Positions 10,301 to 29,206 are shown, counted from the stretch's first letter. The stretch is DNA of 64,000 bases from Thermodesulfobacteriota bacterium (GCA_965202785.1 OZ241855.1:1-64000), one strand, 5' to 3'. Notes: generated by a model from the sequence alone, not told the origin. Made by a program: numbers and translations.

Positions 10301-10544
10301 TATTTCTATAGAGATGAATGCAAAGACGAAGGAAGTTTCAATCAGTCCAGATATTACTCCGTCACTTCCGTGAAGCTTTGCCCGGACGTCTTTTCATAAT
10401 GTGGGTGCTTGCTCCGTATATGCCTTCGGCGGTTTCCATAATGGTCTCGGTCAGAGTCGGGTGCGGATGTATTGAGAAAGATATGTCCCCGGTCGTCGCA
10501 CCCATTTCAATTGTCAAGACGGCCTCCGATATGAGTTCCCCCGC
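10301..10544 (-). pseudogene. Diverged copy of lpdA 3' end plus downstream ~60 bp (direct repeat of 13741-13984)
   Basis: Ungapped alignment, 38 mismatches in 244 nt by manual count (~84%); encodes AGELISEAVLTIEMGA...HPHPTLTE...KRRPGKASRK*. Confidence 0.93.
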
Positions 10545-10595
10545 ACAGCGCGAACGCCTCAAGGGGTCGCCGGGCCCTATGGAAAACCTGATTTT

Positions 10596-13451
10596 TCAGA
10601 GTGCCGGTTTCTCCGAAGAGCGTCTTTTAATCAAGACGGCCGCAAGAAGCGCGAACACAGCGAGAAACAGGCCGAACGCACTGCCGCCCGCATTTCCTCC
10701 GACGGCGCAGCCTCCGCCGCCGCTTCCACCCGGGTCCACCTGGTAGCCGGAACCCACTATGTATACGCGGTCTCCATCATCCGAAGCAATCTCCACCCTC
10801 ACGGAGTAACCCCTTATGAGAGAACCGTCCTCTGTATACTGGACGACCTCTTCTCCGGCCTTCCCTATAATAAGATTCCTTACGTGCGACTTTCCGTATT
10901 CGCTTGCCTGCTCCCTGCTCCTGTCCCCTCCGTGGAATATCACTCTTCCCGTCTCATCCATGATGTAGATGTAGACGTCCCCATCTCTCCACGGCTCCAT
11001 CCTCAGTATCCCGCGAAGCTGCGCGGGATCCGTATCATCCTCGATGGCCTGCCCGATGGATGTTTCCGCGTCCCCGACAAAGTCAATTAATTCACTGTCG
11101 GTGTCTACATCCCCGGCTTCGGGAGTGGGATCTCCGATATCCGGGTTCCCGGGGAAATCACTGCTCTCGGGAGACCCGTCGTAACCTCCTAGCAGTATGA
11201 ACTCTTCCTCTCCGTTTGTAAGGGGAACTTGGGAGGCGGTAAACCGGTGAGCGTAACCTCCTCCATCTATCACGCATCCCCGATCACTGCCGAGATCAAT
11301 AACGGGTTCTTCATCGTCGCAGAGAATCCCAGACCAGTTTAGATCTTCAGCTTCCCTGTCTTCCGCGTGGAAGTACACCCCTCCTTGTCCGGTGAGAAGA
11401 ACGAGGTACGTTCTGCCGTCCCTCCAGCTTCCATCTTCGTCCCTGAAATCCTCAAGGAGCGCCAGGGTATCGCCGAAGCTCTCCTTGCCGGCGATTTCCT
11501 CCGCGGCGCACTCAACGAAATTACCGATGGGGCCGGAAACCGAGCACATTTCTTCTTCCGTTTCCTGCTGCGCCGGAGGCGAACCACCACCGCCTCCGCC
11601 TCCACCGCCACCGCCGCCTCCGCCGCCTCCGGGTCCCGGCCCGATCGGTCCCGTCGGCGCGTCGTTACGTGGTGCGTCGTTACGTGGCGCGTCATCGTCG
11701 GTCACGTTCACCGTCACCCGGGCCTGTAACGTGGAGTAGTAGGAATCCTGCGAGCTGGAGGACGTCATCCGGATGGTCGTCACGCGTTGGCCTTCTGGGG
11801 AATTGTCGAACCTGTCCTTCACCCCTCTCACCGTCACCGTCTGCGGCATGTTCCAGTTGCCGGTCGTGAACGTAAGCGAGGTCGGGTCGATCGTCGCGAC
11901 CGACTGGTCGGAGGATGCGAGCGTAACCGTTACGTCGGCGGTCGGCTCCCTGTTAAGCTTCACGCTGAAGTTCTTAGTGCCTCCGGCCTCCGCCACCGTC
12001 AGGGCAGAGGGCGTAACCGTGATCCCCGGAGTATCCCCCTCAGTCCGGAACGTCCGGCTCGTGAGCTCCACCGAGCAGCTGCTGTCCGCGTACGCCCTCA
12101 AGGAGTAATTCGTCCCGGGGGTCAGGCCGGTGAAACTGACGGCGCTGTCATTATCCTCCTCGCAGGAACCCGACAACGGCCCCGTGTAGTACCAGGGCTT
12201 GTGGAAGAAATTGCTGAGCTGCACTGTAGCCCCGTTTTCAGAGATACTCATGACAGTCAGGGCGGGCGGGTTGGCATCCTCCGTGGTGAACGTCACGCTG
12301 GCAATCGCATTATCCGTGCACGTACCACTATAGGCCTCCCAGGTATAGCTCGTGTCGCGTTCCAGTCCCGTTAGGGGTATGGGCTCCGAAACGGGGCCGC
12401 CCGAGGTGCAGGGGCCCGGGGCCGGCGAGGTCTGCCGGTACCTCCAGTAATAGGTGCCGACGTATGGTAACGTCATAAACGCCCCTGACGACCATTTCCG
12501 GTCCACCGTCAGGGCGGGTCCGATCAGACTGGTATCTTCGGCCGAAGAATCCGGAACTTCGTCGCCGTCTGAGTCAATCGCCTTCACACGCACCGTGTAA
12601 TGGGTGAGCCACAACATCGGGTTTCCACTAGCGTCCTCCTGGGTGATGGTGTAGGAATTGCCCGTGATCCCTAAAACAAACCAATATCCGGGATCAGGCT
12701 GCCCAGGCCGCTCCCAACGCACGTTGTAACTGGCGGCGCCCGGAACCGTGCTCCAGTCGGCCCGAAGGCCGCCGCTTACAGGCGTCAAGGCCATACCCTG
12801 GGCACTACTGCCGTTTACGCGGATCGTCCGCTGTATTGGCTGGGTCCCGATGCTCCATCCCGATGCCGCGCCCGCGTCTTGACCGGAATGGGCCCTAGTC
12901 CATCTGACACAGCTTAGGGTGGAGCACGTAAACCTCAGATTATAGGTCGTGTTGGCGGCAAGTATCGTTCCCCCGGGCGCCGTGAAGGTGAGCGTATGGG
13001 TAACAATGTGCGTCCCACCTGGAGGGGCCGGATTGGTCAGGGTGGCAACCACGGTTGACCCCTCGCGAATCTGTGCCGTCATTCTGACGACACTGTCGGC
13101 AGTGGAAGCGCGGATACTAACGCTTTCGAGGACATAACCCAGCGGCCAGCCTCCGGTCGTGAAGACCTGATGCAGGCCGGAACCAGGCACGGGACTAGAC
13201 TGAGCTACCGCCCGGCCGAAATTGCTGACCAGCACGTCGGCGCTGGCGGCGCCCGGAGCGGCGCCGAGAGCGGCCGTCGCGAGAATGAGAACGGCCAGGG
13301 CGCAGACATGCCGCCTGGCGGAATTATGGAAGCGGGACGGCCGAGACGGAGGGTTCAGGCAGTCATTCGATTCCGCAGGTGCCGACCCTTGTCGGGGAAG
13401 GAATTTCCTTAACCCGGCCGCGAGAAAGGAGAACAGCCCGCAAACCCTCAT
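10596..13451 (-). CDS. Large surface protein: signal peptide, FN3-like and Ig/Calx-beta-like repeats, Gly linker, two Cache-like repeats, Gly-Cys-TM tail
   Basis: ALAVLILATAALGAAPGAASA signal; W...Y.V FN3 patterns (LTGLERDTSYT, FTGLTPGTNYSLRAY); duplicated WRDGxxYxxxxxxxGxVxFH; tail GGSGGGGCAV...FLAVFALLAAVLIKRR. Confidence 0.8.
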   Translation of the reverse strand: MRVCGLFSFLAAGLRKFLPRQGSAPAESNDCLNPPSRPSRFHNSARRHVCALAVLILATAALGAAPGAASADVLVSNFGRAVAQSSPVPGSGLHQVFTTGGWPLGYVLESVSIRASTADSVVRMTAQIREGSTVVATLTNPAPPGGTHIVTHTLTFTAPGGTILAANTTYNLRFTCSTLSCVRWTRAHSGQDAGAASGWSIGTQPIQRTIRVNGSSAQGMALTPVSGGLRADWSTVPGAASYNVRWERPGQPDPGYWFVLGITGNSYTITQEDASGNPMLWLTHYTVRVKAIDSDGDEVPDSSAEDTSLIGPALTVDRKWSSGAFMTLPYVGTYYWRYRQTSPAPGPCTSGGPVSEPIPLTGLERDTSYTWEAYSGTCTDNAIASVTFTTEDANPPALTVMSISENGATVQLSNFFHKPWYYTGPLSGSCEEDNDSAVSFTGLTPGTNYSLRAYADSSCSVELTSRTFRTEGDTPGITVTPSALTVAEAGGTKNFSVKLNREPTADVTVTLASSDQSVATIDPTSLTFTTGNWNMPQTVTVRGVKDRFDNSPEGQRVTTIRMTSSSSQDSYYSTLQARVTVNVTDDDAPRNDAPRNDAPTGPIGPGPGGGGGGGGGGGGGGGGSPPAQQETEEEMCSVSGPIGNFVECAAEEIAGKESFGDTLALLEDFRDEDGSWRDGRTYLVLLTGQGGVYFHAEDREAEDLNWSGILCDDEEPVIDLGSDRGCVIDGGGYAHRFTASQVPLTNGEEEFILLGGYDGSPESSDFPGNPDIGDPTPEAGDVDTDSELIDFVGDAETSIGQAIEDDTDPAQLRGILRMEPWRDGDVYIYIMDETGRVIFHGGDRSREQASEYGKSHVRNLIIGKAGEEVVQYTEDGSLIRGYSVRVEIASDDGDRVYIVGSGYQVDPGGSGGGGCAVGGNAGGSAFGLFLAVFALLAAVLIKRRSSEKPAL
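11656..11693. repeat. 15-bp tandem repeat (2.5 copies) encoding DAPRN-DAPRN-DAP, next to a poly-Gly tract
   Basis: ggcgcgtcgttacgt ggtgcgtcgttacgt ggcgcgtc. Confidence 0.85.
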
Positions 13452-13452
13452 A

Positions 13453-13463
13453 CCCCCCCCCCC
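13453..13463 (-). repeat. Poly-G11 homopolymer, candidate slipped-strand phase-variation tract
   Basis: C11 on + strand between SD-backed ATG 13497 and ATG 13451 (46 nt apart, i.e. 3n+1). Confidence 0.8.
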
Positions 13464-13554
13464 ATTTTTTACTCATGAAGGGAATTGTACGTTTCATGAT
13501 TTCGGGCCTCCGTTTTTCAGATGATTAAGTATAGCACCAGATAGTTAGTACTAT

Positions 13555-13584
13555 ATTATCATAAATCGGACCGGTCGTTGTCAA
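13555..13584 (-). promoter_or_regulatory. Putative sigma70 promoter of the surface-protein gene
   Basis: Minus strand TTGACA-N18-GATAAT. Confidence 0.45.
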
Positions 13585-13801
13585 TAAGATTTTGGGGCTC
13601 AGGTTTTCGTAAGGATGGCGGACGCGGTGCGGCATCAGCCCGTATCCTGGCAAATCGACGGGAATTCGGCTCGATTCAGACAGAATGCGTCACCGATTTC
13701 CCGCGATACAGGTTCGGGATGAAATTCCTGCTTTCCAAGGTATTGTTATAGAGATGAATCCAGAAGCAAAAGGAGCTTTAAGCAGTGCGGATATTGCTCC
13801 G

Positions 13802-15235
13802 TCACTTCTGTGAAGGTTTGCCCGGACGTCTTTTCATAATGTGCGTGCTTGCTCCGTATATGCCTTCCGCCGCTTCCATAAGGGTCTCGGTCAGAGTCGG
13901 ATGAGGATGTATGGAAAAGGCTATATCCTCAGCAGTCGCACCCATTTCAATTGCCAGTACGGATTCCGATATGAGTTCCCCCGCCTGCGGTCCGACAATT
14001 CCGACACCGATCACTCTCCCGGTTCCCTTATGGGTTATCAGCTTCGTTAGACCGTCGGTCCTGTTAAGCGTAAGCGCCCTGCCCGAGGCCGCCCATGGAA
14101 ACTTAGACACGTCCACTTCCATCCCCGCCTCCCTGGCCTCGCTTTCGGTAACCCCGCACCAGGCGATTTCGGGGTCGGTAAAAATGACCGCCGGAACGGC
14201 TCTTGGGTCATACTGGGTTTTGGATCCGGTTATGACCTCTGCCACGATCTTGGCTTCATACGTAGCCTTGTGGGCAAGCATGGGTTCCCCTGCAACGTCT
14301 CCGATCGCGAAAATCGCCGGATCGGCCGTCCTTCTCTGGGAATCGGTCTCTATAAAGCCCTTTTCGTCCACCGCCACCCGGGTGTTCTCAAGACCGAGAC
14401 CTTCTGTGTAAGGCACCCTTCCGACCGAGATCAGAACCTTTTCGTATTTCTCCTGAAAGTTTTTCCCATCGGCTTCAAATGAAACTTGAACTTCGTTGTC
14501 TAACTCACTTATAGAAATCAATTTTGTTTCAAGCATTATGGAGCGGAATTTCTGGTCGAGCCTCTTTTTAAGGACTTTCGCAAGGTCCCTGTCAACCCCC
14601 TGGACGAGCCCGGGGAGCATCTCAACAACCGTCACCTCGGTGCCCAGGGAAGAGAAAAACGTTCCAAGCTCAAGGCCTATGTAGCCCCCGCCCACCACAA
14701 GCAGGCTCTTGGGAATCTCTCCCATGGAGAGAGCGCCGTCGGAATCGACCACGTTCGGGGAACCGAAATCCACTCCCGGGATCCTCCTCGAAACAGAACC
14801 CGTTGAGATAATAGCATTCTCAAACAGGACTTCCCGCTCCTCGCCGGAGGCCGTTACGACGCGAAGGGTGCTTGAAGATGTAAAAGACGCCCTTCCCCGC
14901 ACGTAATCTACCTTCCTTGCCTTAACAAGCGTGCGAAGCCCGCCCGTGAGCTTGGAGACCACCTCGTCTTTCCATGAAAAAAGCTTCCCGGGGTCTATCT
15001 CCGGTTCCCCGTAGCTAAGACCGAAATCCGCCGCGTCCCTTGCCTCCTCGGCCACCTTCGCCGCGTGAAGAAGGGCCTTTGAAGGTATGCATCCCCTGTA
15101 GAGACAGACCCCTCCGGGGTTAAGCTCGGGATCTATAAGCGTTACTTTCTTTCCCTTGTCTGCAAGGGCAAACGCTGCGGGATATCCCCCGGGGCCAGCC
15201 CCTATTACCGCCACTTCAGTCGTTATTCTCTCCAT
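13802..15235 (-). CDS. lpdA: Dihydrolipoamide dehydrogenase (PDH E3)
   Basis: GAGPGGY, GGVCLYRGCIPSK, GGGYIGLE, HPHPTLTE. Confidence 0.98.
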   Translation of the reverse strand: MERITTEVAVIGAGPGGYPAAFALADKGKKVTLIDPELNPGGVCLYRGCIPSKALLHAAKVAEEARDAADFGLSYGEPEIDPGKLFSWKDEVVSKLTGGLRTLVKARKVDYVRGRASFTSSSTLRVVTASGEEREVLFENAIISTGSVSRRIPGVDFGSPNVVDSDGALSMGEIPKSLLVVGGGYIGLELGTFFSSLGTEVTVVEMLPGLVQGVDRDLAKVLKKRLDQKFRSIMLETKLISISELDNEVQVSFEADGKNFQEKYEKVLISVGRVPYTEGLGLENTRVAVDEKGFIETDSQRRTADPAIFAIGDVAGEPMLAHKATYEAKIVAEVITGSKTQYDPRAVPAVIFTDPEIAWCGVTESEAREAGMEVDVSKFPWAASGRALTLNRTDGLTKLITHKGTGRVIGVGIVGPQAGELISESVLAIEMGATAEDIAFSIHPHPTLTETLMEAAEGIYGASTHIMKRRPGKPSQK

Positions 15236-15241
15236 CGTCTG

Positions 15242-16558
15242 CTACACCGCCTGCTCAAATATGCTCTCGGGAGAGCGCTCAAGCATTTCGCAGAGCCACC
15301 GGAGGAACCTGGCCGCTTCCGCCCCGTCTATAATCCTGTGATCGTAGGAAAGCGAAAGCGGAAGCATGAATCTCGGCACGAATTCCCCGTCTGCGTACGC
15401 GGGCTCAAAGGAGGATCTCGATACTCCCAGTATGGCCACCTCGGGTGGATTGAGAATCGGAGTGAAGAATGTTCCCCCTATTCCCCCCAGGTTGGTTATG
15501 GTGAAGGAGCCCCCCTGGAGCCTGTCGGCTGAAAGCCTCTTCTCCCTAGCCCGGGAAGAGATATCGGTTAACTCAACAGATATCTGCGTTATGTCCTTTT
15601 TGTCGACATCCCTTATCACCGGGACAAGAAGCCCCCTTTCTGTATCCACCGCGACCCCTATGTTTATGTATTTTTTGTAAACGATCGTGCGGCTGCCCAT
15701 ATGTATGCTTGAATTGAATTTCGGAAACTCGGAGAGCGCCCGGGAAAGGGCCTTTACCAGGATCGCGGTTACTGTAAGGTTCCCCCCTGCTTCGGCCACC
15801 CTCTCCCTGTTGAGTCCTCTAAGCTCCTCAAGCCGGGTGGCGTCCGCCTTGTCAAACTGCGTTACGTGCGGGGCCGCCCACGCCCGGGTGAGGCGCTCGG
15901 CTGTAAGCTTCCTCACGGTCGAGAAACTCTCGGTAACCGTCTCCCCCCATCTTGAAAAATCGGGAAGATCGGGTTCCGCAGGCGCAGCCGCCTGGGCCGA
16001 GGCAGCGGATCTTATTATGGCCTTTGCGTGGGCCTTCACGTCTTTTTCAAGGATTCTCCCGCGTGGGCCTGTTCCCGAAACGGAGCCGAGCGAAACGCCA
16101 AGCTCCCTCGCAAGACGCCTCACGGAAGGCGCCGCGGCCACCTTGAGGGGTCCAGACGGTGCCATGTCGTCTGTACGCGGGGTTCTCTCCGGAGAATGTT
16201 TTTCTTCCTCCGCGAGTTTTATCTCTGGAGCGGGTTTTTCAGCTGCGGCAGGAGTTTTCTTTTCTGTCTCATCCACCGCGGCCGAAGCGTCGGGTTCCGC
16301 TGATGCGGGCTCTTTGCCCTCCGAGTCGCCGTCTATCCTTACAAGGACCTCGTTTATCGCCACGGTGTCCCCGGCGCTTACCAGGACGTCCGTAACCGTT
16401 CCGTCTGCGGGGGAAGGGATCTCAACCGCGGCCTTGTCCGTTTCCACTTCAAGCAGGGGCTGCTCAAACAAGACCCTGTCTCCGGGCGCGACGAGAACCT
16501 CTATCACCTGCCCGGATTCAATTCCTTCTCCAAGTTCGGGAAGCCTGAACTCTATCAA
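15242..16558 (-). CDS. aceF: Dihydrolipoamide acetyltransferase (PDH E2), single lipoyl domain
   Basis: Lipoyl ETDKA, E3-binding APSVRRLARELGV, catalytic DHRIIDG; TTG start 16558 with SD GAGGA. Confidence 0.95.
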   Translation of the reverse strand: MIEFRLPELGEGIESGQVIEVLVAPGDRVLFEQPLLEVETDKAAVEIPSPADGTVTDVLVSAGDTVAINEVLVRIDGDSEGKEPASAEPDASAAVDETEKKTPAAAEKPAPEIKLAEEEKHSPERTPRTDDMAPSGPLKVAAAPSVRRLARELGVSLGSVSGTGPRGRILEKDVKAHAKAIIRSAASAQAAAPAEPDLPDFSRWGETVTESFSTVRKLTAERLTRAWAAPHVTQFDKADATRLEELRGLNRERVAEAGGNLTVTAILVKALSRALSEFPKFNSSIHMGSRTIVYKKYINIGVAVDTERGLLVPVIRDVDKKDITQISVELTDISSRAREKRLSADRLQGGSFTITNLGGIGGTFFTPILNPPEVAILGVSRSSFEPAYADGEFVPRFMLPLSLSYDHRIIDGAEAARFLRWLCEMLERSPESIFEQAV

Positions 16559-16571
16559 TTCACGTTCCTCG

Positions 16572-19241
16572 TCATGTGACCGAAGGGCTTGGCTTTCCCC
16601 GGTCAATTCCAAATTCGCTTATCGCCTCGTTTAGGATTTTCTCATCAATCCTGCCTTCCCTCGTAAGCTCGTAAAGCGCCGCGATCGCGATGTGGCGGTA
16701 GTCGACCTCGAAAAAGTCGCGAAGCGCCTCGCGGGTGTCGCTTCTTCCGAACCCGTCAGTTCCAAGGGAAACAAGGGGCCTTGGGAAGTGGGCGGAGACA
16801 GACTCCGGAAGGCTTTTTAGGTAGTCGGTCGCCGCGATAAATACCCCGTCTTCTCCTTCCATGCACTCTGAAATGTAGTTCTTTTTTCTCTTCTCCCCGG
16901 GATTGAGACGGTTCCACCTCTCCGTCTCCTTCGCGTCATCGTAAAGCGCCTTGTAGCTCGTTACGCTCCAGACGTCGGTCGGGACGCCGTAGCCGCTCTC
17001 AAGGACCTCCTTTGCCCAGAGAACCTCGTTCATGATCGCCCCGCTTCCGAGGAGATGGACCTTTTTCCCCGAGTCCTCTATCTGCGAAGGGGCGAACTTG
17101 TACATCCCTTTTATTATACCTTCCTCGACCCCCTCGGGCATGGCGGGCTGCGTGTAGCGCTCGTTCATCACCGTTATGTAGTAGAATATCTCCTCTCCGT
17201 CCTGGTACATCCTCTTTATCCCGTCCCTGACTATCACCGCTATCTCGTAGGAAAAGGCCGGGTCGTAGGCCCGCAGGTTGGGATAGGCGTAGGCGAAATG
17301 ATGGCTGTTTCCGTCCTGGTGCTGAAGGCCCTCGCCCGCAAGGGTGGTGCGCCCGGCGGTGCCCCCCACCATGAAGCCCCTGCATTTCATGTCGGCTGCG
17401 GCCCAGATAAGGTCTCCTATCCTCTGAAAGCCGAACATGGAGTAGTAGATGAAAAACGGGATGGTGTTTATGCCGTGGGTCGAGTAGGCCGTGCCGGCCG
17501 CGATGAAGGAGGACATGCTGCCAGCCTCGGTTATGCCTTCTTCAAGGATCTGGCCGTCCTTTTCCTCCTTGTAGTAAAGGAGGGTGTCCGCGTCGACAGG
17601 TTCGTAGAGCTGTCCCACGCTTGAGTAGATGCCCACCTGGCGGAAAAGCGCCTCCATACCGAAAGTTCTCGCCTCATCGGGGACTATGGGGACTATAAGG
17701 TCTCCTATGTTCCTGTCCCGCATGAGCCTTGAGAGCATGTGGACGATCACCATGGTAGTAGCCACCTTTCTCTTGGAGCCCGAGGCCTTTTTGAACTCCT
17801 CGAATACTTTCTCGGGGATCTTTTCAAGGGGCTTTGCGCGTACGACCCGCTTCGGGACGGGTCCGCCGAGGGCCTCCCTTCTCTCGCGCAGATACCTCAT
17901 CTCGGGGCTCTCGGGAGCGGGCCTGTAGAAGGGAGCTCTTCTCACCTCTTGGTCCGTTAGCGGTATGTAGAATCGGGAGCGGAAGCGTTTCAGTTCCTCC
18001 TCGTTAAGCTTTTTCTGCTGGTGGGTAATGTTCTTGCCCTCCCCCGCTTCCCCGAGGCCGTAGCCCTTTATGGTCTTTGCGAGAATCACGGTGGGGGAGC
18101 CGGTGTTCTCGACCGCGGCTTTGTAGGCGGCGTAGACCTTCTCTGAGTCATGGCCTCCCCTCGCGAGTTTCTCAAGCTGCTCGTCTGAGTGCTTCTCGAC
18201 CATCTTTCGGATTTCAGGGCGGGTGCCGAAGAAATGCTCCCTTATGTACTTTCCGGGAGAGATGGTGTACCTCTGGTAATCGCCGTCAAGGGCCGCCTCC
18301 ATCCTCTCGACAAGAAAACCGTCTTTATCCTGGGCCAAAAGCGGGTCCCATGTCGCCCCCCAGATGACCTTTATCACGTTCCAGCCGGCCCCCCTGAAGA
18401 TTCTTTCTAGCTCCTGTATTATCTTGCCGTTTCCCCTCACGGGACCGTCAAGGCGCTGGAGGTTGCAGTTGACCACGAATATCAGGTTGTCGAGTTTCTC
18501 TCTTGACGCAAGCGTGATGGCTCCCAGGGTTTCGGGCTCGTCCGTTTCCCCGTCCCCGATAAAGGCCCACACCTTGGCGTCGGTGCGGGGCTTAAGACCC
18601 CTGTCCTCGAGGTACCTGTTGAAGCGGGCCTGGTAAATCGCCATTATGGGAGAAAGGCCCATCGAGACCGTAGGGAACTCCCAGAAGCCCGGCATGAGCC
18701 AGGGATGCGGATAGGAGGTGAGGCCGTCTCCGCTGAGTTCCCTCCTGAAGTTGCGCATCTGCTCGATCGAGACCGTGCCTTCGAGAAACGCCCTTGCGTA
18801 TATGCCCGGCGAGGCGTGTCCCTGGAAGTAGATCATGTCCCCTTCCCTGTTCTCGTCGCCCGCCCTGAAGAAATGGTGAAAGCCTATTTCGTAGAGCGTG
18901 GCGGCCGAGGCGTAGGTGGAGATGTGTCCGCCGATGCCGTCGCTTATCCTGTTTGCGCGCACGACCATGGCCATGGCGTTCCACCTTATTATGCTTCTTA
19001 TGTTGCGCTCTATTTCGTAGTTGCCGGGGTACGGAGGCTGGTCCTCCACGGATATAGTGTTCACGTAAGGAGTGTTCGACGTGTAGGGGATCTGCACGCC
19101 TTTTTTCTGGGAGTAAATTCTGAGCTTTCGGAGCAGTTCGGCTGCCCTCTCCCGCCCGGAGTTCTCGATCACGTATTCAAGCGATTCGATCCATTCCCGG
19201 TCTTCTGCTTCTTCTTCCGATATTCGAGGATCTTCTTCCAT
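16572..19241 (-). CDS. aceE: Pyruvate dehydrogenase E1, homodimeric type
   Basis: QGHASPGIY, TPP motif GDGETDE...NCNLQRLDGP, GEGLQHQDG; probable ATG at 19241 (MEEDPR). Confidence 0.97.
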   Translation of the reverse strand: MEEDPRISEEEAEDREWIESLEYVIENSGRERAAELLRKLRIYSQKKGVQIPYTSNTPYVNTISVEDQPPYPGNYEIERNIRSIIRWNAMAMVVRANRISDGIGGHISTYASAATLYEIGFHHFFRAGDENREGDMIYFQGHASPGIYARAFLEGTVSIEQMRNFRRELSGDGLTSYPHPWLMPGFWEFPTVSMGLSPIMAIYQARFNRYLEDRGLKPRTDAKVWAFIGDGETDEPETLGAITLASREKLDNLIFVVNCNLQRLDGPVRGNGKIIQELERIFRGAGWNVIKVIWGATWDPLLAQDKDGFLVERMEAALDGDYQRYTISPGKYIREHFFGTRPEIRKMVEKHSDEQLEKLARGGHDSEKVYAAYKAAVENTGSPTVILAKTIKGYGLGEAGEGKNITHQQKKLNEEELKRFRSRFYIPLTDQEVRRAPFYRPAPESPEMRYLRERREALGGPVPKRVVRAKPLEKIPEKVFEEFKKASGSKRKVATTMVIVHMLSRLMRDRNIGDLIVPIVPDEARTFGMEALFRQVGIYSSVGQLYEPVDADTLLYYKEEKDGQILEEGITEAGSMSSFIAAGTAYSTHGINTIPFFIYYSMFGFQRIGDLIWAAADMKCRGFMVGGTAGRTTLAGEGLQHQDGNSHHFAYAYPNLRAYDPAFSYEIAVIVRDGIKRMYQDGEEIFYYITVMNERYTQPAMPEGVEEGIIKGMYKFAPSQIEDSGKKVHLLGSGAIMNEVLWAKEVLESGYGVPTDVWSVTSYKALYDDAKETERWNRLNPGEKRKKNYISECMEGEDGVFIAATDYLKSLPESVSAHFPRPLVSLGTDGFGRSDTREALRDFFEVDYRHIAIAALYELTREGRIDEKILNEAISEFGIDRGKPSPSVT

Positions 19242-21419: not shown

Positions 21420-21851
21420 TTAAAGTGTGCTCATTGTTATAAAAATCACAAAAAACAGAACGGCAAACATAAGCACGAGACATCCCGACTTACCAGCATT
21501 CTTGTATTCTAATCTCGGGTTTTCTGGAAGGCTTTTACTTTTGTTTTCTGATCTCCGCCTAGTGCTCTTTTGTGCATCCTCGGCATCAATGAACTTGGTT
21601 ACTAAATTGAATGTCGTCTCAAAATTGAGAATTTCATACCGATCTGTTCGTTTTGCCTTGGAAAACAATGTGGGGAAATTTTGCTTCCATCCTACATAGT
21701 ACTTGAAGCACTGCTTTTCCGTTCCGAAAATCTGTCCATAATGACCACACAGAAGAGCATGAGTAATCCGTTTGCGCTTGCCGTTTACCTCTTTGGCCTT
21801 TGCGATCTGTTCTGGATTCAAGGTCACTAAAATCAATGGGACTCGAACCAT
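21420..21851 (-). CDS. Hypothetical protein with C-terminal membrane anchor
   Basis: SD GAGGAGG; C-term KSGCLVLMFAVLFFVIFITM. Confidence 0.6.
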   Translation of the reverse strand: MVRVPLILVTLNPEQIAKAKEVNGKRKRITHALLCGHYGQIFGTEKQCFKYYVGWKQNFPTLFSKAKRTDRYEILNFETTFNLVTKFIDAEDAQKSTRRRSENKSKSLPENPRLEYKNAGKSGCLVLMFAVLFFVIFITMSTL

Positions 21852-21887
21852 ATTTTCCTTCCTCCTCGTGTTGTCTTGATCGTCGCT

Positions 21888-23135
21888 TTAGAAATAAGGA
21901 TAACGTTCTTGGTCAGAGTAAAGTACAGGCTCTTGTACCAGATCCGCAATTTCGATCGAGGTCGAAATAAGGGAATCCAAAACCATTTCAATTTTAGAGT
22001 AATCGTATTCGGGTTCTCGTCTCCTCAGGCTTAGAAATTTTCGCTTGTAGGAATCCTTATGCAGCAATTTTCCTTGATACGATTTCGTCGAGTCTTTGTA
22101 GTTTTTCCAGTCCACAATCGGAGGGTTGTCTTGCTTCCAATGCAAGTCTAGATAACACTCAATAGCTGCAGCGCATCCATTAATATCCGCCTTCCATTTG
22201 CCGCATGGACCAATCGTATTAAACTCCCTTAGCGACTCACAATCAGGGAGCTTTAATATTCTCATATTCTTCGGAATGTCGAGTCTGGAAGTCCTTTCGT
22301 AATTTTCTACCCCTTCGGCGTCGTTGTCGTAGATCACAATAATATTGTTTTCGATTTCTATGCTCACTAAACCCTGACAGAAGCGATATAAGTTTCCTGT
22401 GCCAGTAAACGGATACCCTTCCTCCATGTCAACAAAGTAGAAAAAATCTGCGACTTCCGGTCTTAGTAAATTAAATGCATGTCGAATCACTCTGGCATCC
22501 GAACTGCCCTCAGTAACAATCAGAAATTTACGATTGGTGGTTCCTAGGTTGTTGATAATATTTTCACGTTCTACCCATTCACTCTCGACAACACCGGTGA
22601 ATGCCCAACTTACATCGCGAGTCGCAGTATCTGCATTTTCAGCAAGCAATCTCAGTTTTACATACGGGTGTAAGTTCCCAATAAACTCCATGAAATAGTG
22701 ATAAGCAGAGGGGACGTCACAATCAGGAAATTGCAGTTCCAGATGGTTTACGATTTGTTCGAAAAAGGATTCTTCAGGATCAAAGTCGCCGTAGCAGATA
22801 TTAGTCAGGTGTTCAATGTCTGCTCTTTTTAGGATTTCGGCAAAAACTTCAAATAATGAAACTTCCATTCCTTCTCTGATCGCAAGCGATTTAATTAGTC
22901 TCATTGCTGCACACAACGTGTAGCCCATCAACTCCAATCTGCCAACAATCTTGGACAGAGGTCGTGTTACCCCTTCTTTCATCTGGGTGATGATTTCACC
23001 TTCGTTGTCAGCATATTCGTAGGCTATCTGAGCCAAATCACCCCTTTGAAACAGGCATCCATGCATCATAAAAAGATCATCTTCCCCACAATCGATTTCT
23101 AAATCTCCAACAGCTAAATAAATTATTGAATTCAT
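21888..23135 (-). CDS. HEPN/Toprim-associated N-terminal domain + Toprim (OLD-like) domain protein
   Basis: N-term HGCLFQ..D, RPL..I..RLELMGYT; Toprim IVTEGSSD and YDNDAEG. Confidence 0.75.
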   Translation of the reverse strand: MNSIIYLAVGDLEIDCGEDDLFMMHGCLFQRGDLAQIAYEYADNEGEIITQMKEGVTRPLSKIVGRLELMGYTLCAAMRLIKSLAIREGMEVSLFEVFAEILKRADIEHLTNICYGDFDPEESFFEQIVNHLELQFPDCDVPSAYHYFMEFIGNLHPYVKLRLLAENADTATRDVSWAFTGVVESEWVERENIINNLGTTNRKFLIVTEGSSDARVIRHAFNLLRPEVADFFYFVDMEEGYPFTGTGNLYRFCQGLVSIEIENNIIVIYDNDAEGVENYERTSRLDIPKNMRILKLPDCESLREFNTIGPCGKWKADINGCAAAIECYLDLHWKQDNPPIVDWKNYKDSTKSYQGKLLHKDSYKRKFLSLRRREPEYDYSKIEMVLDSLISTSIEIADLVQEPVLYSDQERYPYF

Positions 23136-23268
23136 TGAGCAAACCTTATCCTAGACATTTCTTAAAAAGAACTACGTAGAGGCAATAGAAAAAATCATTA
23201 AATACTCTTGTTATGTTATCTTCATGGCGAGAAGGGGTAGATACACGCTAGCACCAGTATAATACAGC

Positions 23269-23291
23269 GGGAATTATATAGATAACTAGAC
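23269..23291 (+). repeat. Terminal-repeat-like motif copy 1 (GGGAATTATATAGATAACTAGAC)
   Basis: Matches copies at 35424, 36223, 37136, 43970, 44496(-), 58354(-); its TAG ends a decayed hydrophobic minus-strand ORF. Confidence 0.65.
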
Positions 23292-23694
23292 AAATATACA
23301 TAAAACGTGGGGTTGGTTTGTGAAGAAACTTTCACCAAAAATTAAGAAGGCAAATCCTATAAGAATCATCTCCCAAGTGCTTATATCTCCGCTTACTTCC
23401 CTTCTGTAGAAGAAACTACTAATTACCGAAAAATAGAAGAAATTCCAGAAATAAGATTAATGAGGAAGAAAAGATTAGGGTTTCGAGGACATAAAAATTC
23501 TTAAACTCAAATTTGCGAAAAAATTGCTAGTGCCGACTTTTGAGTACTACGGTCTTTTCCCGTATAATATTAGGTTTATATTACTCTAGAACTACCCGTA
23601 AACTGATAATACGCTCTGCTAAATTTTCTGCAAGACAAAAAGGAGTGTCAAAATCCAATGAAGCCTTATAACTCCTACCGTATGGCGGTGTACT

Positions 23695-26600
23695 TTGGAT
23701 AAGATTCGCATCCACAAAGAGGAAATGCCTGCCTACCTCGACAAAGAGGTATCCTCAGCAGATCGGGACAAGTTTGGCCACACACATCTTGCAGATGCAC
23801 TCCGTGGACTCATTGAGAATGAGAAACACCGCCCACCCTATTCGGTTGGGCTGCTTGGCAAATGGGGAACTGGCAAATCCACTGTTAAAGAAATATATCT
23901 CCATGATCTGAAAAATGACGAAATCAAAAATGGGGATGGTATCAAGCGCCGGGACCGCGTCTATACGATCACATTTAATGCATGGAAGTATGGCGGCGAA
24001 ACTGATATCAGGAAATCTCTTTTCCGCCACATATTCCTAAATATTGGCGGTAAGCATGAGGAAGTCGATCGGTATCTGTTTAAGACCGTAAAGTCAACAG
24101 AGTTCCAAAAAAAGTCCTTCAGCGAAATATGTACCGAATTTACTGATCACGTACCAGGGCTTCTAATTGTCGGTTTCTTCGTTTTACTGTTCTCCGCCCT
24201 AGTGACCCTAATGGCATGGGCTTTCGGATATGAAGATCCGATTACTGCATCTGTCGCCCTTGTGTCATCTGCTGGCATTGTAGCTTTGCTAGTCCAGAAA
24301 TTCTTTTCAAACCTTATGCTATTGTCGGCACGCAAACCTATGCATATAACTTCTCCTCCAAGTCAGACTATTGAGGAACTAGAAAGCCTTTTTCTTGCTC
24401 AGATGAAAAAATTTAAAAAAGGGGGCATTTGTTCCAATAAGGGCAAGAATGTCCAACGAATCGTTGTCTTCGTTGATGACCTTGACCGCCTTACGGCCGA
24501 CGAGATGGTGAGTGGCCTTGATGGTATCCGCAGCCTCATCGAGATGGCTTCACATGAAATGCCTGATGATACCGGCATAGTTTTTGTTATCTCATGTGAC
24601 GAAGAACGTGTGGCTGATGTGTTAAGCAAGCGCCGTGCTTATGGTGAACTTTCAGCTAACGTATCGAACATTCAGGATGCGCGACGCTACCTGGACCGCA
24701 TTTTCCAGTTTCGTCTGGAAATTCCGCCGTTTCCAAAACGGGATATGCGAAATTTTGTGCTGAGCTTAGTAGAAACGGAATATCCCGCATTGCAGGCTGA
24801 CTTTGAGCAAAGAAAAATTGATAACACAGAATTAGTGGACAGGATGATTCATCCTGCGGTTCGAAGTCCTCGTAACGCCATTCAGATACTCAACCTGTTT
24901 GCCCAAAGTTGGTGGCTTGGTGTCTTGCGTGAATACAAGGCTGTAGGCTCTGAAAATCCTGGTGGCCTTGGGGAAGGCGTTATCACAAGTCACCCACTCA
25001 CTCTTGCCATTGTCTGCGTTATCAGAACAGATTTTCCAGACTTTCATCAGGCACTCCAAAGGAATCCGCGCATCTTTGATTATTTCATTGACAGATTTAT
25101 TCGTCCTGAACCACTGCAAGCACTTCCTGCAGAGATCCACGAAGAGTTAGCAGTCTTTGCAGATTTTCCAGATGAGCAGCCCAAGGAAGGTCGTTGGGAG
25201 GTAAAACCACAGCATCGTGGGCTTCGACAATTCATGTCGTACACACAAGACGTTCGTCGTCCGTATAGTCTTCAACCATTTCTGGCATTATCACAAGACT
25301 CGGTATCCAGAAAACATGGGGACAAGGCGGTACCTATTGAAGAGGCCCTTAGAACCTCGGATTCTATAGCACTTTTGGATGCGGTTGGACTAACTGGCAG
25401 TGCTGAGCCACTACCTTCTGATTTTGGAACTTTGCTTGCTGATCTCATTGACGACCTGAGGACCGAGACACCGACTATCCAAGACAATGTTGCCTTTACG
25501 GTTGCACAACTTGACCAGAGGATTCCAGAGAAGGACAAGCGGCGCATCCTCGGGTTTGTCATACGCCGCGCCGGAGACAGCGAAGATTTACGCTGGCGCG
25601 TAGGACCGTCCAAGTTGCAAACCCTTGCCTCATATGCGGAAAAAGAGGAATTGCAAGTGCTCGGACGTTCGCTGATCGAGGATATTGCCTCGGACGAAAC
25701 AAAAGTACTTCTTCCAAGTTTGGAGCGTCCTAACTTGCGCGAAGGCCGAAATTTGACCGAAACCACTGCCTCGATGATTCTGGAAATCATGGAAAAGACC
25801 GAACTGCTCCCGTTAACTAGTCAACAATTGGCTGATTGGCTGTTAGACAGGGCGGTCAAAATTTCGGGGCAATCAGACCAGATTCCATTAACTTGGCTTG
25901 AGGAAAAACTGCTGGCGCACGAAAATATTGTGCTTCCGATGATCCGCAACGATTATCCACGCATTATTGCGGAAGAACTCAGCCGGGAGCAACCAGAACA
26001 ACTTGACTTGGCCGTTATAACTGATCGTGTAGGCAGGGTGTTTGACTACTTCTTTGAGCAAGGAGCGCAAACACGGGTAAAACTGTGGGACTACCTAAAG
26101 AGTTTTGCTAGTCTTCGTCAGTCATCGTTAGTAGCTCTTGCTTCCTCGAAGTTTGCCCAATGGCGTGACGATGTTGACGAGGGCCCCGCAGATGAAATTT
26201 TTGAGGTTCTGGGCACACGTCTTATCAAAAATGAGGAAGATGCTGACACATGGCCACTTGACAATGAGGAAGAGACACTCCGCGACATATTCGTTGACCT
26301 TGCGGAGGCACTGGAGCCGTTCAGTGACAATGGTGTATCTAACATGGTTCGTCTGGCGCAGGACTGGTCGAACACACCTGTACGGTCCGGGAGCGCAGCA
26401 CGGATTTATTCCGTCATTGAGGAAGTTGACCCTGACCAGTGGGCGACCCTGAACACGCAGTGGACGGGGAGGCTGTTTGCGGATTTGCCGGAAGCATGCC
26501 AGAAAGTACTGATCGCCGCCGCCAATCAAGAAGATGCGTCAGAGGAACTGCGTATGGAATTGGCTTCCAGTATTGCATCCCTACGCGGTCCAATTGAGTT

Positions 26601-27813
26601 TGACAACCACAAAATTGCGTCGCTTTCGCGGATACTTCACTTACTCGACAAATCCTTACTGCACGCCAGCCCGTTTGCCGAACAGATTGAAGAGTTCATT
26701 AATGACACGATAAGTCTAATAACGCAAAGTCCGGATAGCTCCGCTATCTTGAAGGTTCGAACTCTTGGAGATAACTTGGATAAGTTGCCCGTCGAGAAAG
26801 CACATCAACTGCTCGATTCCTTGAGCAACATAGTGTGGGATATTATCCCCAGCGTGTATAAAGAATTTAGCGAGAAATGGCCTATGCCAGCATCGGAAGG
26901 TGGTATCGACTTTGCGGCTCAGAATCTCTTCGATGCAGGTATAAACGCATTTGATAATTTAGAGCAATCTGAAGAGGCTGTACAACTTTTAAAAAGTCTT
27001 GATAGCCTGCATCGGCGTGCACGTTTGGATCAAGAAGATAACCAGAATAATCTTGTCCATAGAGCCTGTGGGTTTTGGTCATACGCTCCAGAGACCGCCG
27101 AGAATATTGTCGGCCAATACCCTGACGCAAGGCGTACACCTGAACTGCTCTCAGGCTTGGCAGAGCAGGTTTCCGAGATCAGCACAGGTGACGGTGACAA
27201 TAGGGAGCAATTACTGGAATTCCTCGTTTGTGAAGTCGGTCACGCCGACGCGGAAGATATCCAAGAGGTGACAACTAGGCTTCTTTCGGAGCGACCGCAG
27301 GAAATCGATGATTCGCCGGATCCAGTCCTTGCGTTATGGGTTGCCGCGGTGTCACGCCTTGATCCTCAAATACTGGTCGATACACTCGTCAGCAACGAAT
27401 ACATTAATGATGATCAGGCTGCCCACCTCTATAACCACGTCTTAAATAATTTGGAGCATATCTCCGATGAGCACTTCTTCGAAATTCTCAGGGGGACCCT
27501 TTCTACAGCGGACGGCAGAGAAAAGACAGCGGATGTGGTAGTGAGATCAATTGGGAACGTCGCAGACCGACTGCTGACCTCAGATGGTCAGAAGCGTAGG
27601 CTTTGCGAAGCTGCACTTTCTGTTTTCTCGCAAATACCGAACCGCGAGAGAAAAGCGAACTTAGCAAAAATATGTACACCGTTTGAACTTAAGAACGTAA
27701 TTGTGGATGGAGAATATAAGAACCATATATCGGAAGACGACTTAGAAATAATTGAGGGTTTCACGGGGAAGATTTCTAAAAAAGGAGTATTTGGAAGAGA
27801 TTTAGAGGAATAA
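23695..27813 (+). CDS. KAP-family P-loop NTPase with two TM helices and ~900-aa C-terminal extension
   Basis: Walker A GKWGTGKST, FNAWKY, TM hairpin, Walker B VVFVDDLDRL, YLDRIFQ, SPRNA. Confidence 0.9.
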   Translation: MDKIRIHKEEMPAYLDKEVSSADRDKFGHTHLADALRGLIENEKHRPPYSVGLLGKWGTGKSTVKEIYLHDLKNDEIKNGDGIKRRDRVYTITFNAWKYGGETDIRKSLFRHIFLNIGGKHEEVDRYLFKTVKSTEFQKKSFSEICTEFTDHVPGLLIVGFFVLLFSALVTLMAWAFGYEDPITASVALVSSAGIVALLVQKFFSNLMLLSARKPMHITSPPSQTIEELESLFLAQMKKFKKGGICSNKGKNVQRIVVFVDDLDRLTADEMVSGLDGIRSLIEMASHEMPDDTGIVFVISCDEERVADVLSKRRAYGELSANVSNIQDARRYLDRIFQFRLEIPPFPKRDMRNFVLSLVETEYPALQADFEQRKIDNTELVDRMIHPAVRSPRNAIQILNLFAQSWWLGVLREYKAVGSENPGGLGEGVITSHPLTLAIVCVIRTDFPDFHQALQRNPRIFDYFIDRFIRPEPLQALPAEIHEELAVFADFPDEQPKEGRWEVKPQHRGLRQFMSYTQDVRRPYSLQPFLALSQDSVSRKHGDKAVPIEEALRTSDSIALLDAVGLTGSAEPLPSDFGTLLADLIDDLRTETPTIQDNVAFTVAQLDQRIPEKDKRRILGFVIRRAGDSEDLRWRVGPSKLQTLASYAEKEELQVLGRSLIEDIASDETKVLLPSLERPNLREGRNLTETTASMILEIMEKTELLPLTSQQLADWLLDRAVKISGQSDQIPLTWLEEKLLAHENIVLPMIRNDYPRIIAEELSREQPEQLDLAVITDRVGRVFDYFFEQGAQTRVKLWDYLKSFASLRQSSLVALASSKFAQWRDDVDEGPADEIFEVLGTRLIKNEEDADTWPLDNEEETLRDIFVDLAEALEPFSDNGVSNMVRLAQDWSNTPVRSGSAARIYSVIEEVDPDQWATLNTQWTGRLFADLPEACQKVLIAAANQEDASEELRMELASSIASLRGPIEFDNHKIASLSRILHLLDKSLLHASPFAEQIEEFINDTISLITQSPDSSAILKVRTLGDNLDKLPVEKAHQLLDSLSNIVWDIIPSVYKEFSEKWPMPASEGGIDFAAQNLFDAGINAFDNLEQSEEAVQLLKSLDSLHRRARLDQEDNQNNLVHRACGFWSYAPETAENIVGQYPDARRTPELLSGLAEQVSEISTGDGDNREQLLEFLVCEVGHADAEDIQEVTTRLLSERPQEIDDSPDPVLALWVAAVSRLDPQILVDTLVSNEYINDDQAAHLYNHVLNNLEHISDEHFFEILRGTLSTADGREKTADVVVRSIGNVADRLLTSDGQKRRLCEAALSVFSQIPNRERKANLAKICTPFELKNVIVDGEYKNHISEDDLEIIEGFTGKISKKGVFGRDLEE

Positions 27814-27877
27814 AAGAGACGGGAAAAACGGTGAAAACGGGAATTTTGGGATTGGAGAAGGAAAAACTCTTAGATTT

Positions 27878-28537
27878 TCATTGAGATATCTTGATTCCCA
27901 TATAAAACACTTCCGTCTTTTCTTTCTTTTCCGTTGCCGACTCCCCAGCGAGAATTTCTTTTTCCGGTTCTCGCTTTTGTAAAACGGCTTTCGGTACTTC
28001 CGACATAGTAACAGGTGTAGGCACCTCTTTAGAACTAAAGAAAGCAACGAAAAGAAAAAGTGCTAAGACTATAGCAAGGAATATGACCCACCCCTTTTTT
28101 CTGAGTCTGGGTTTCCTCAACTTGAAAACACGCTTGTAGCCTATTTTCCTGCGTTTACGTTTCCTAAACTTGGATAACTCGGCCAGAACCTGCCCTCTCA
28201 AGTCTCTGTCGCCCCCTCCCCATGTCTGAATCAAGTGGTCATAGTAGCCATGCTCACGATACCATCTGATCTTCTTGGCAATGTATTGTCGGTAAGAGTA
28301 ATCATCAACCATTCCCCAGTGTTCCCAGTAATACTGTTCGCCATTGATAAAGAGAGTAAAGTCTGGGTAGCGGAAAGAACCATCCCAGCTAGACAGTTCC
28401 CTTTCATACTCGAAGGAAACACCCTCCGAAGTAAGAAGATTGGCAATAAACCTCTCTTGCTTGCTCCGAACCATATCGCCGGAAACGGCACGATAAACCT
28501 TCCCCGATTCCCAGTTCTCCGTTTCCAATAAACTCAT
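27878..28537 (-). CDS. Predicted PD-(D/E)XK/Vsr-like nuclease domain with C-terminal TM helix
   Basis: RSKQERFIANLL..FEYE..YPDFT..YWEHWG; basic linker; WVIFLAIVLALFLFVAFF. Confidence 0.65.
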   Translation of the reverse strand: MSLLETENWESGKVYRAVSGDMVRSKQERFIANLLTSEGVSFEYERELSSWDGSFRYPDFTLFINGEQYYWEHWGMVDDYSYRQYIAKKIRWYREHGYYDHLIQTWGGGDRDLRGQVLAELSKFRKRKRRKIGYKRVFKLRKPRLRKKGWVIFLAIVLALFLFVAFFSSKEVPTPVTMSEVPKAVLQKREPEKEILAGESATEKKEKTEVFYMGIKISQ

Positions 28538-28714
28538 TTCGTTCTCTCTTTATGCCCTACCGGAAAACATTATGAAGAAACCATGCGGTCATGTAGCCCG
28601 CAATTTCCATATCAAGCATTTTCAATTGTCTCGGTCAATAAAGTCAATCACTGTTTCTCCAGGAAAACGCATCGACAGTATATTGTTCCTACACCAACAA
28701 AATCAATTGGCAAT

Positions 28715-28864
28715 TTGCAGGAACGAAAAATCTCCCAGCGCCGCTTGGCCACTATAGCTGAGGTAAGTTAACCGACGGTCTCGCGCTTTGAGCAGCAAAA
28801 GCAAGATATTCAGCTGTCAAGCGCTATTAAAATCCTTGATGTCCTGGGATTGATGGAGAAATAA
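28715..28864 (+). pseudogene. XRE-family HTH regulator remnant with internal stop
   Basis: LQERKISQRRLATIAEVS*PTVSRFEQQKQDIQLSSAIKILDVLGL; TAA at 28769 inside the HTH. Confidence 0.75.
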
Positions 28865-28937
28865 GGGACCTGTCTTTGCGGACTTGAATCTGCAAAGAAC
28901 TCGGAGCGCTATCCCAAGTCCTGTTTATTGAGTAAAG

Positions 28938-29206
28938 AGTTGCCCGGGCAAGGAAGCTGGTCCTTCAGGGAAATGGTGTTCGCGGCGTAGGGAATATCAA
29001 CTCCTTTTTTTCTGGGAGTATATCCTGAGCTTTCAGAGCAGTTCGGCTACCCTCTCGCGCCCAGAGTTCTCAATCACGTATTCAAGCGATTCGATCCACT
29101 CCCGGTTTTCAGCTTCTTCTTCCGATACTTGAGGATCTTCTTCCATTATACGTATAAAACGCAACGAAGCGGGGCTGCGGAGGAACTGCAACATGAAAAA
29201 CCACAT
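28938..29206 (-). pseudogene. Decayed copy of aceE 5' end and upstream ~60 bp (direct repeat of ~19019-19303)
   Basis: MEEDPQVSEEEAENREWIESLEYVIENSGRER...; T7 vs T6 frameshift and a 15-bp deletion between gtgttc repeats. Confidence 0.92.

Follow-up and report, generated by a model that had tools for sequence, protein, structure and literature searches.

The window, the whole stretch of DNA analysed here, comprises positions 1-64000 of OZ241855.1 (GCA_965202785.1; 64,000 nucleotides), a Candidatus Dadabacteria metagenome-assembled genome (MAG) made of one contig of 1,643,464 bp (50.7% GC, 96% complete) and referred to below as G000. It harbors aceE-aceF-lpdA, a pyruvate dehydrogenase (PDH) operon of the homodimeric-E1 type, whose genes form one co-directional cluster in which aceE and lpdA score above their equivalog cut-offs. 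Along the minus strand, the order is rpoH-dnaK, a first island of variable genes (island 1), a 5' remnant of aceE, a second island (island 2), the intact aceE-aceF-lpdA operon, a one-gene cassette (cargo B), a 3' remnant of lpdA, a spacer, a gene for a STAS anti-sigma-factor antagonist, and rpsT (Table 1). The comparison set consists of 35 other genomes of the genus (36 with G000), labelled G0xx, and synteny was assessed on the fetched hot-spot regions of these genomes. The closest relatives of the G000 operon are those of G003, G042 and G049, and the clade to which it belongs comprises G000, G003, G042, G049, G011 and G019. Pairwise distances within this star-like clade amount to 5-14%, according to the gene compared.

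An earlier note on this DNA had claimed that both outer ends of the operon are duplicated, diverged and in direct orientation, with cargo between each copy and the live gene, and pairwise BLASTN bears this out. At the aceE end, 28938-29203 matches 19019-19300 with 80.6% identity over 283 columns (E 1e-72), of which approximately 225 nt are coding sequence, and 9,636 bp (19302-28937) separate the two copies. At the lpdA end, 10299-10544 matches 13739-13984 with 84.6% identity over 246 columns (E 2e-76), the copies being 3,194 bp apart (10545-13738). Both repeats are direct. The aceE remnant is dead, as it carries a TGA at codon 38, one additional A in an A-run, and a 15-bp deletion; the reading frame of the lpdA remnant is open, with nine amino-acid changes. 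When the whole genome (1.64 Mb) was compared with itself by BLASTN with a word size of 11, the intact aceE start was the only match of the aceE remnant (E 7e-67), and the lpdA remnant matched the intact lpdA end only (E 1e-70). No second PDH operon was found at the DNA level in G000, and the four variable regions of the window contain no core-gene fragments besides the two remnants. In the 35 other genomes, no contig carries two copies of the aceE 5' end, the second copy of G008 being a contig-end haplotype.

The lpdA remnant is anchored to its surroundings, since it is continuous with the native spacer, the STAS gene and rpsT, as in G049, G003 and G017. Thus, 10544-10187 aligns as one block with the lpdA 3' end and its downstream sequence in G003 (81.9% over 359 columns), G017 (81.6%/359) and G049 (77%/362), and in G049 the lpdA-spacer-STAS-rpsT segment is collinear with the remnant-spacer-STAS-rpsT segment of the window. 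An independent duplicate of the lpdA 3' end is found in G047 (L041/L042, approximately 11.3-20.7 kb of the joined stretch). It measures 1,190 bp, is 90.7% identical to its intact partner, is broken by a stop codon, and ends at the lpdA stop; it lies 7 kb downstream of lpdA, beyond genes for a 328-aa protein and a GC-rich protein of 1,802 aa, and is followed by a STAS homologue. This remnant is nearest to the lpdA gene of G047 itself.

Table 1. Features of the window in the order in which they occur along the minus strand (positions counted from the first letter of the window).
Feature	Position	Strand	Basis or remark
rpoH-dnaK	35239-32433	-	
Island 1	29208..32432	both	GC ~0.43-0.47; then dnaK
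bPH+SHOCT protein (island 1)	31266-31883	+	Pfam
ThsB-like TIR protein (island 1)	30518-30928	-	PADLOC ThsB 5e-13
8xMP membrane protein (island 1)	30010-30525	-	Pfam
DUF4145-like protein (island 1)	29314-29910	-	Pfam
aceE 5' remnant, ~58 nt of leader + ~75 decayed codons	28938..29207	-	BLASTN 80.6%/283 columns
Island 2, 9,636 bp	19302..28937	both	GC ~0.44; Pfam, PADLOC
XRE-HTH pseudogene (island 2)	28532-28864	+	in-frame TAA; CAA in G021 and G003
PD-(D/E)XK-like protein, 219 aa (island 2)	27878-28537	-	PADLOC PDC-S68 C-terminus 2e-35
KAP NTPase, 1,372 aa (island 2)	23695-27813	+	Pfam; PADLOC PifA/QatA-like
HEPN/Toprim_N protein (island 2)	21888-23135	-	Pfam
143-aa open reading frame (island 2)	21420-21851	-	
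Pentapeptide+FRG protein (island 2)	19766-21280	+	PADLOC PDC-S15 3e-71
Intact partner of aceE repeat (leader + first ~75 codons)	19019..19300	-	pairwise BLASTN
GC-rich hairpin + T-run, 10 nt upstream of aceE ATG	19255..19274	-	terminator-like, genus-wide
aceE, intact, 890 aa	16572..19244	-	TIGR00759 1380 bits (cut-off 859.9)
aceF, intact, one lipoyl domain	15242..16612 (limits of the gene caller)	-	Pfam 2-oxoacid_dh, Biotin_lipoyl, E3_binding
lpdA, intact, 477 aa	13802..15235	-	TIGR01350 496 bits (cut-off 408.8); Pfam Pyr_redox_2, Pyr_redox_dim
Intact partner of lpdA repeat (live lpdA end + 63 nt)	13739..13984	-	pairwise BLASTN
Cargo B, one-gene cassette	10545..13738; gene 10596-13451, 951 aa	-	NCBIfam NF041539 53 bits (cut-off 30)
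lpdA 3' remnant, last 61 codons (183 nt) + 63 nt past stop	10299..10544	-	BLASTN 84.6%/246
Native lpdA-downstream spacer, running on from lpdA remnant	10187..10298	-	
STAS anti-sigma-factor antagonist gene, between lpdA remnant and rpsT	9725..10033	-	Pfam STAS; TIGR00377 just under cut-off
rpsT	9516-9235	-	

It is highly improbable that this arrangement was created by an assembler that strung together different haplotypes or species. In favour of such an artefact are the single-contig nature of the MAG and the case of the G008 MAG, in which this region is present as two haplotypes on different contigs. However, contigs assembled separately from two public runs, X4 and X6, the latter from a different study, bridge all examined junctions with no differences, and the stop codon, frameshift and deletion of the aceE copy would be unexpected in the live gene of a co-occurring strain. 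In X4, which is possibly the source sample of the G000 assembly, contig 9 covers 10000-10632 and contig 16 covers 28851-29900. In X6, the lpdA side and the operon are covered by contigs 24 (10000-10613), 29 (13577-14081) and 30 (14480-21956). The cover of X6 amounts to approximately 2.4x over 10000-21956 and to almost nothing over 21957-29375, and loose ends occur at 21547 and 27910; the gap may reflect a strain whose cargo differs in this stretch, an uncovered stretch proving nothing in itself. Run X1 covered short parts, at 95-99% only.

Over approximately 5.7 kb, the intact operon is 92.5, 92.0 and 91.6% identical to those of G003, G042 and G049, respectively, in line with its flanks, which are 89.9% (9.6 kb downstream) and 92.6% (rpoH-dnaK) identical to those of G003. 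Sliding-window identity revealed no discontinuity at the repeat boundaries of the intact operon. At diagnostic sites, defined as those where G003, G042 and G049 agree and G010 differs, and excluding 30 sites where G000 matched neither, G000 sides with the G003/G042/G049 clade at 474 positions along the operon and with G010 at 26; the corresponding counts are 4 v 0 in the bin of the aceE start and 25 v 1 in that of the lpdA end (13900-13700). Because identity follows that of the flanks, no break occurs at the repeats and clade-type diagnostic sites are found throughout, the PDH operon is taken as vertically inherited, no foreign segment having been found in the intact copy. The earlier note had proposed the replacement of the resident operon's interior by an incoming segment of operon plus cargo; in that form the proposal is not supported, since the operon is clade-typical over its full length.

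The start of aceE, at approximately 19244, was set from an ATG that is conserved in the genus alignment, the start predicted by the gene caller at 19301 being an in-frame ATG farther upstream. The hairpin that precedes it has a 6-bp GC-rich stem followed by TTTTGT, and paired changes are seen in G024 (C>T with G>A) and G009 (G>A with C>T). Its function may be that of a leader or attenuator, or it may shield the operon from transcription reading through from the adjacent hot spot; an Rfam scan of the whole window yielded no match, the hairpin included. In the hairpin copy of the aceE remnant (29179-29160), pairing has been preserved by a compensatory G>A/C>T change. That pairing was kept in this way suggests that some of the remnant's divergence dates from a time when it was still constrained.

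Examination of synteny in sister genomes, one of the checks put forward in the earlier note, indicates that both sites are variable. In G006, a distant member of the genus, the order is sucC-rpoH-dnaK-aceE with a dnaK-aceE gap of 0.2 kb. Elsewhere among the fetched genomes, 0.6 to 18 kb lie between dnaK and aceE and 0.05 to more than 8 kb between lpdA and rpsT, with differing content. By these comparisons, dnaK|aceE and lpdA|rpsT are core-gene-flanked hot spots that vary genus-wide and carry defence genes. A third low-GC variable region of the window lies at 35240-44633, between rpoH and sucC, with RES-domain, GIY-YIG and EVE-like open reading frames (ORFs) and several family-less ones; in G006, sucC directly adjoins rpoH, with no variable region between them.

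The outer parts of island 2 have relatives at the same hot spot in other genomes. The segment 28944-28719, which contains the HTH tail, is found in G021 (89%), G003 (88%) and G049 (87%); 21407-19302 is approximately 84% identical to G021, with the pentapeptide+FRG gene at approximately 84-85% in G021 and in the second G008 haplotype; and the 219-aa gene is present in G003 and G021 at the dnaK/aceE hot spot. No aceE fragment adjoins any of these copies in the relatives. Homologues of the 219-aa gene with 87-92% identity lie upstream of aceE in G003 and G021 and downstream of lpdA in G002 and G041, and this PD-(D/E)XK-like gene seems to move between the two hot spots.

Island 1 adjoins dnaK, whose 3' end is collinear with that of the relatives. 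No BLASTN match of at least 100 columns to this island was found in the fetched hot-spot regions of the other genomes. The DUF4145-like protein has no relatives in the genome_contigs or metagenome_contigs collections, and the 8xMP protein is represented at 42 metagenome loci with at most 63% identity, none of which has aceE or dnaK nearby. The TIR and 8xMP genes form a two-gene module, the same adjacency being found at 4 of these 42 loci (L145, L146, L151, L152), where the TIR protein is 60-70% identical. The single gene of cargo B is GC-rich and encodes a surface protein that has a choice-of-anchor R domain, a hydrophobic/basic C-terminal tail, and a Pfam fn3 match below cut-off. It belongs to a family of large surface-protein genes with a 5' region of approximately 150-350 bp that is common to four loci of the genome (76-93%), including 1148049-1151477 and 1579582-1579741.

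The Pfam hits of the window's 35 ORFs include no recombinase, whether within the cargos or next to them, and the PF00589 matches of the genome, at 154418, 973612 and 1636063, are far from it. The window contains no tRNA gene, and hence no integration target of the tRNA type. Integrative elements duplicate the 3' or 5' end of their target gene in the attachment (att) sites attL and attR, and remnants that have lost their integrase are known as cis-mobilizable element (CIME)-like. The two repeats of the operon might be read as decayed elements that entered the aceE or lpdA end site-specifically, brought their own copies of the gene ends, and later lost the integrase. Such elements are classically recognized by direct gene-end repeats on both sides of foreign cargo, and an SBP_bac_5 gene elsewhere in G000 has its 3' end repeated (65 bp, 92%) around a Gabija-like island (see below), the segment being present at the same site in G049 and G011. 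Nevertheless, this origin is improbable: the Pfam scan found neither a recombinase nor a fragment of one in either cargo, and the repeats are long (246-283 bp) and 81-85% identical, without a long identical core. Furthermore, their limits vary, the lpdA repeat of G000 covering 246 bp and ending 63 nt past the stop codon and that of G047 covering 1,190 bp and ending at the stop. The outer parts of island 2 occur without a repeat in G003, G021 and G049, and cargo B consists of one gene, to which a paralogue within G000 is the closest relative.

The genome-wide self-comparison, which the earlier note had also put forward as a way to find similar cases, returned two further cargo segments bracketed by a repeat of the neighbouring gene's end. 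The first, the Gabija-like island (70420-76738; 6.2 kb, GC 0.42), is located between an aldehyde dehydrogenase gene and the SBP_bac_5 gene and encodes a GajA-like protein (AAA_15 + OLD-TOPRIM), a GajB-like protein (UvrD-like helicase), and a 504-aa protein of no assigned family; it is bracketed by the 65-bp direct repeat of the SBP_bac_5 gene 3' end mentioned above, and in G049 and G011 this segment likewise lies beside the aldehyde dehydrogenase gene. The second, a 2.2-kb HipA toxin-module island (141846-144406), is bracketed by a 165-bp repeat of the segment upstream of yicC. The yicC-side copy of that repeat is 94.8% identical to the single copy of G049 and carries the G049 allele at 10 of 14 diagnostic sites, whereas the far copy is 91.5% identical to G003 and is of the G003/G011/G019/G042 type at 11 of 14 sites, the two copies being 82.5% alike. 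The site is empty in four of five relatives (G011, G019, G042 and G049), and G003 has the island with one copy of the repeat. Because its two copies carry the alleles of different lineages, inter-lineage recombination took place at the HipA site, and this pair is direct evidence that such repeats arise when island-bearing and island-free lineages recombine imprecisely.

The best-supported account of the aceE and lpdA remnants, to which we assign a probability of roughly 0.5, is that they are dead leftovers of recombination in which related lineages with differing cargo at the two hot spots took part. An incoming fragment would pair by homology on one side, within the flanking core gene, and its other end, inside aceE or lpdA, would be joined illegitimately at a short microhomology beside the resident cargo. 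Such joining would be of the homology-facilitated illegitimate recombination (HFIR) type, and incoming fragments of the form dnaK...island 1...aceE' and 'lpdA...STAS...rpsT would present its classical geometry. If the incoming fragments were as proposed, the absence of island 2 and cargo B from the donor would explain why their free ends fell within the operon. The outcome would be additive: the cargos of both lineages would be retained, and a short copy of the operon end would be trapped between them and subsequently decay. At the joint between the aceE remnant and island 2, the aceE sequence GGCAACT at the remnant end corresponds to GGAAACT in the G021-type island (6/7, 4 exact), G021 serving as a stand-in for the unrearranged island and this joint being the one of four that had an unrearranged partner. 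The island segment at this joint is present in G021, G003 and G049 without an adjoining aceE fragment. The interpretation offered in the earlier note therefore survives in part: its suggestion that both termini act as integrase-independent homologous landing pads comes close to recombination between lineages as favoured here, given the absence of a recombinase, the microhomology junction and the mixed alleles at the HipA site, and the foreign operon is the part that finds no support.

The divergence of the remnants bears on when they separated from the live genes. Their full-length identity to all genus copies except those of G006 is 72-86% for aceE and 64-84% for lpdA, and the best full-length match is G042 for both (85.5 and 83.6%, respectively). 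Where G003, G042 and G049 agree, both remnants side with their consensus, whichever of 20-22 other genomes is set against it. Since states specific to the intact G000 copy are present in the remnants at only 1 of 9 (aceE) and 0 of 10 sites (lpdA), the separation of the remnants from the live copy would coincide with a divergence between lineages rather than fall at some random point along the G000 branch. Changes derived in the remnants affect 19/216 (aceE) and 19/189 (lpdA) coding sites, with a distribution over the three codon positions of 6/5/8 (72 sites each) and 7/3/9 (63 sites each), to be compared with 3/1/9 and 2/1/4 for changes derived in the intact copies. This pattern implies that the remnants have been largely unconstrained, perhaps after an early constrained phase. 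As for their phylogenetic grouping, a point raised in the earlier note, both belong with one and the same star-like clade. Trees built on 250-300 columns are polytomies that leave the remnants unplaced, on long end branches (0.18 for aceE, 0.15 for lpdA). Forcing remnant and intact copy into one clade cost 17.5 units of log-likelihood (delta lnL) for aceE, with a p value of 0.07 in the approximately unbiased (AU) test, and 0.26 for lpdA (p 0.22), the tested groups having been named only after the tree was seen. Altogether, the data fit remnants whose divergence from the live genes goes back to a split between lineages of the clade and which were later trapped as dead fragments.

These data also bear on copying in place within the G000 lineage, for instance by replication template switching. 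Specifically, a 3.15-kb cassette from 355.8-359.0 kb would have been copied to the lpdA terminus with re-entry 246 nt upstream, which would have generated cargo B and the lpdA repeat at once, and a separate copy of the aceE start would have been pasted 9.6 kb upstream. Cargo B (10581-13726) is indeed 86.8% identical to 355795-358958 of the same genome over 3.15 kb, non-coding flanks included, compared with at most 72%, over the 3' third only, in each of the 35 other genomes, and this divergence resembles that of the lpdA repeat (15.4%). In addition, a sister relation between the lpdA remnant and the intact copy was not rejected, and the G047 remnant is nearest to its own lpdA. Yet because almost no intact-specific states are shared, duplication in place would need to have occurred at the very base of the G000 branch, and to have done so twice. 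The aceE remnant is disfavoured as a sister of the intact copy (delta lnL above), it adjoins island 1, which none of the fetched relatives has, and the HipA pair of the same genome clearly mixes the alleles of two lineages. As an account of both remnants, copying in place is about as improbable as decayed integrative elements; it is plausible mainly for cargo B.

A single nested episode, the model of the earlier note or its mirror image, ranks marginally first among these minority explanations, while still being unlikely. A molecule from a sister lineage would have spanned dnaK-rpsT, and island 2, the operon and cargo B would have come to lie inside the operon ends of the other lineage through two illegitimate joints. 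One exchange between sister lineages would then have used the conserved essential operon as shared homology, an integrase-free scaffold on which defence and surface-protein cargo might be stacked additively, and this in an uncultured bacterium that has a small genome and no visible competence genes; this notion is as tentative as the episode itself. The apparent ages of the remnants are similar, judging from the 19 derived coding sites of each, both share almost no derived states of the intact G000 copy, both have G042 as their best full-length match, and they are the sole core-gene fragments in the four variable regions. On the other hand, the G042 margins amount to 1-2 sites and the ages rest on 19 changes each. 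With the foreign operon as the incoming part, two illegitimate joints would have formed while 5.6 kb of approximately 90% homology between them went unused, and the intact operon displays no sign of foreign origin. Moreover, the outer parts of island 2 at the same hot spot in G003, G049 and G021 fit a resident island 2. The episode is retained as a minority rival because donor and recipient would both belong to one star-like clade and could not be told apart.

Several observations weigh against separate recombination events between lineages with different cargo, as favoured here. Had the two events been independent, remnants of similar apparent age at both ends of one operon would be a coincidence. 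The search for a donor-type allele was negative, nothing exceeding 85.5% (aceE) or 83.6% (lpdA) full-length identity in the 35 other genomes, short local BLAST matches to the remnants reaching 90% and 88%, respectively. In a clade as star-like as this one, foreign and native copies would be indistinguishable in sequence. No divergent tract adjoins either remnant in dnaK or in rpsT-holA, the sole patch being located inside holA and not adjacent. The lpdA remnant and its intact partner may still be sisters (delta lnL 0.26, p 0.22), and the changes in the remnants are mildly biased towards third positions (13/8/17 summed), so that most of the remnant branch could represent neutral decay after an early duplication in place. 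The nearest homologue of cargo B is G000's own paralogue (87%), which would suit a copy event within the genome, and neither the genome nor the metagenome collections yielded a relative of island 1 next to aceE. Finally, natural transformation lacks visible machinery: ComEC (PF03772) has no match in the 96%-complete G000, and DprA (PF02481) reaches 21.5 bits, below the cut-off of 29.6. Much inter-lineage recombination is nevertheless seen in this genome. As to the holA patch (8380-8980, 0.6 kb), G000 differs there by 14-20% from all 12 compared relatives, as against 9-14% between one relative and another; either a small tract of recombination or locally fast evolution may explain this.

Many core-flanked defence hot spots lack mobility genes, and the movement of cargo there is largely inferred. 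Gene-end fragments trapped between cargos are physical scars, roughly datable, of cargo that was added rather than replaced between related lineages. G000 contains four repeat-bracketed cargo segments (at aceE, at lpdA, the Gabija-like island and the HipA island), and a systematic search for scars of this kind could therefore chart how islands move without integrases in uncultured lineages. A single case will not surprise a specialist.

The repeats resemble att duplications in that direct gene-end repeats bracket foreign cargo while the live gene is intact, and differ from them by the absence of a recombinase, by a length 4-6 times that of usual att sites, by a divergence of 15-19%, and by limits that vary between genomes. 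A closer counterpart is found in the literature on HFIR, in which displacement leaving orphan gene ends is proposed for the T6SS (type VI secretion system) effector-immunity arrays of Vibrio cholerae and for the orphan 3' ends of Rhs and contact-dependent inhibition (CDI) genes (PMC5361080). The earlier note had called this an unusual route for building islands, a description that does not fit with that proposal. The likeness lies in a conserved flank that anchors the incoming DNA while the other end joins illegitimately, in the displacement rather than replacement of the old module, in truncated gene ends that pile up beside the live gene, and in the lack of an integrase (PMC5361080). Here, in contrast, the fragments are ends of a housekeeping operon and not of polymorphic toxin genes, they are found on both sides of one operon, and microhomology was checked at one junction only; in addition, HFIR was defined in the setting of natural transformation (as cited in PMC5361080), and the present host has no ComEC match.

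The core defence hot spots (cDHS) of Pseudomonas aeruginosa offer another parallel. For cDHS1 and cDHS2, 29% and 47% of sites, respectively, are described as devoid of detectable mobile genes, and homologous recombination in the flanks is suggested by the authors as a route of transfer (PMC10250203). The G000 hot spots similarly hold variable, lower-GC defence cargo between the same core genes, and they differ from what is related of cDHS1/2 in that gene-end fragments persist as visible scars, and in an uncultured lineage with a small genome (PMC10250203). Literature searches on HFIR and genomic islands and on Dadabacteria defence systems and sponges turned up no paper on PDH-operon end duplicates. 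The arrangement at the PDH operon is thus a further example, in an uncultured lineage, of a known kind of event, with one unusual feature, namely that both scars stem from a single housekeeping operon.

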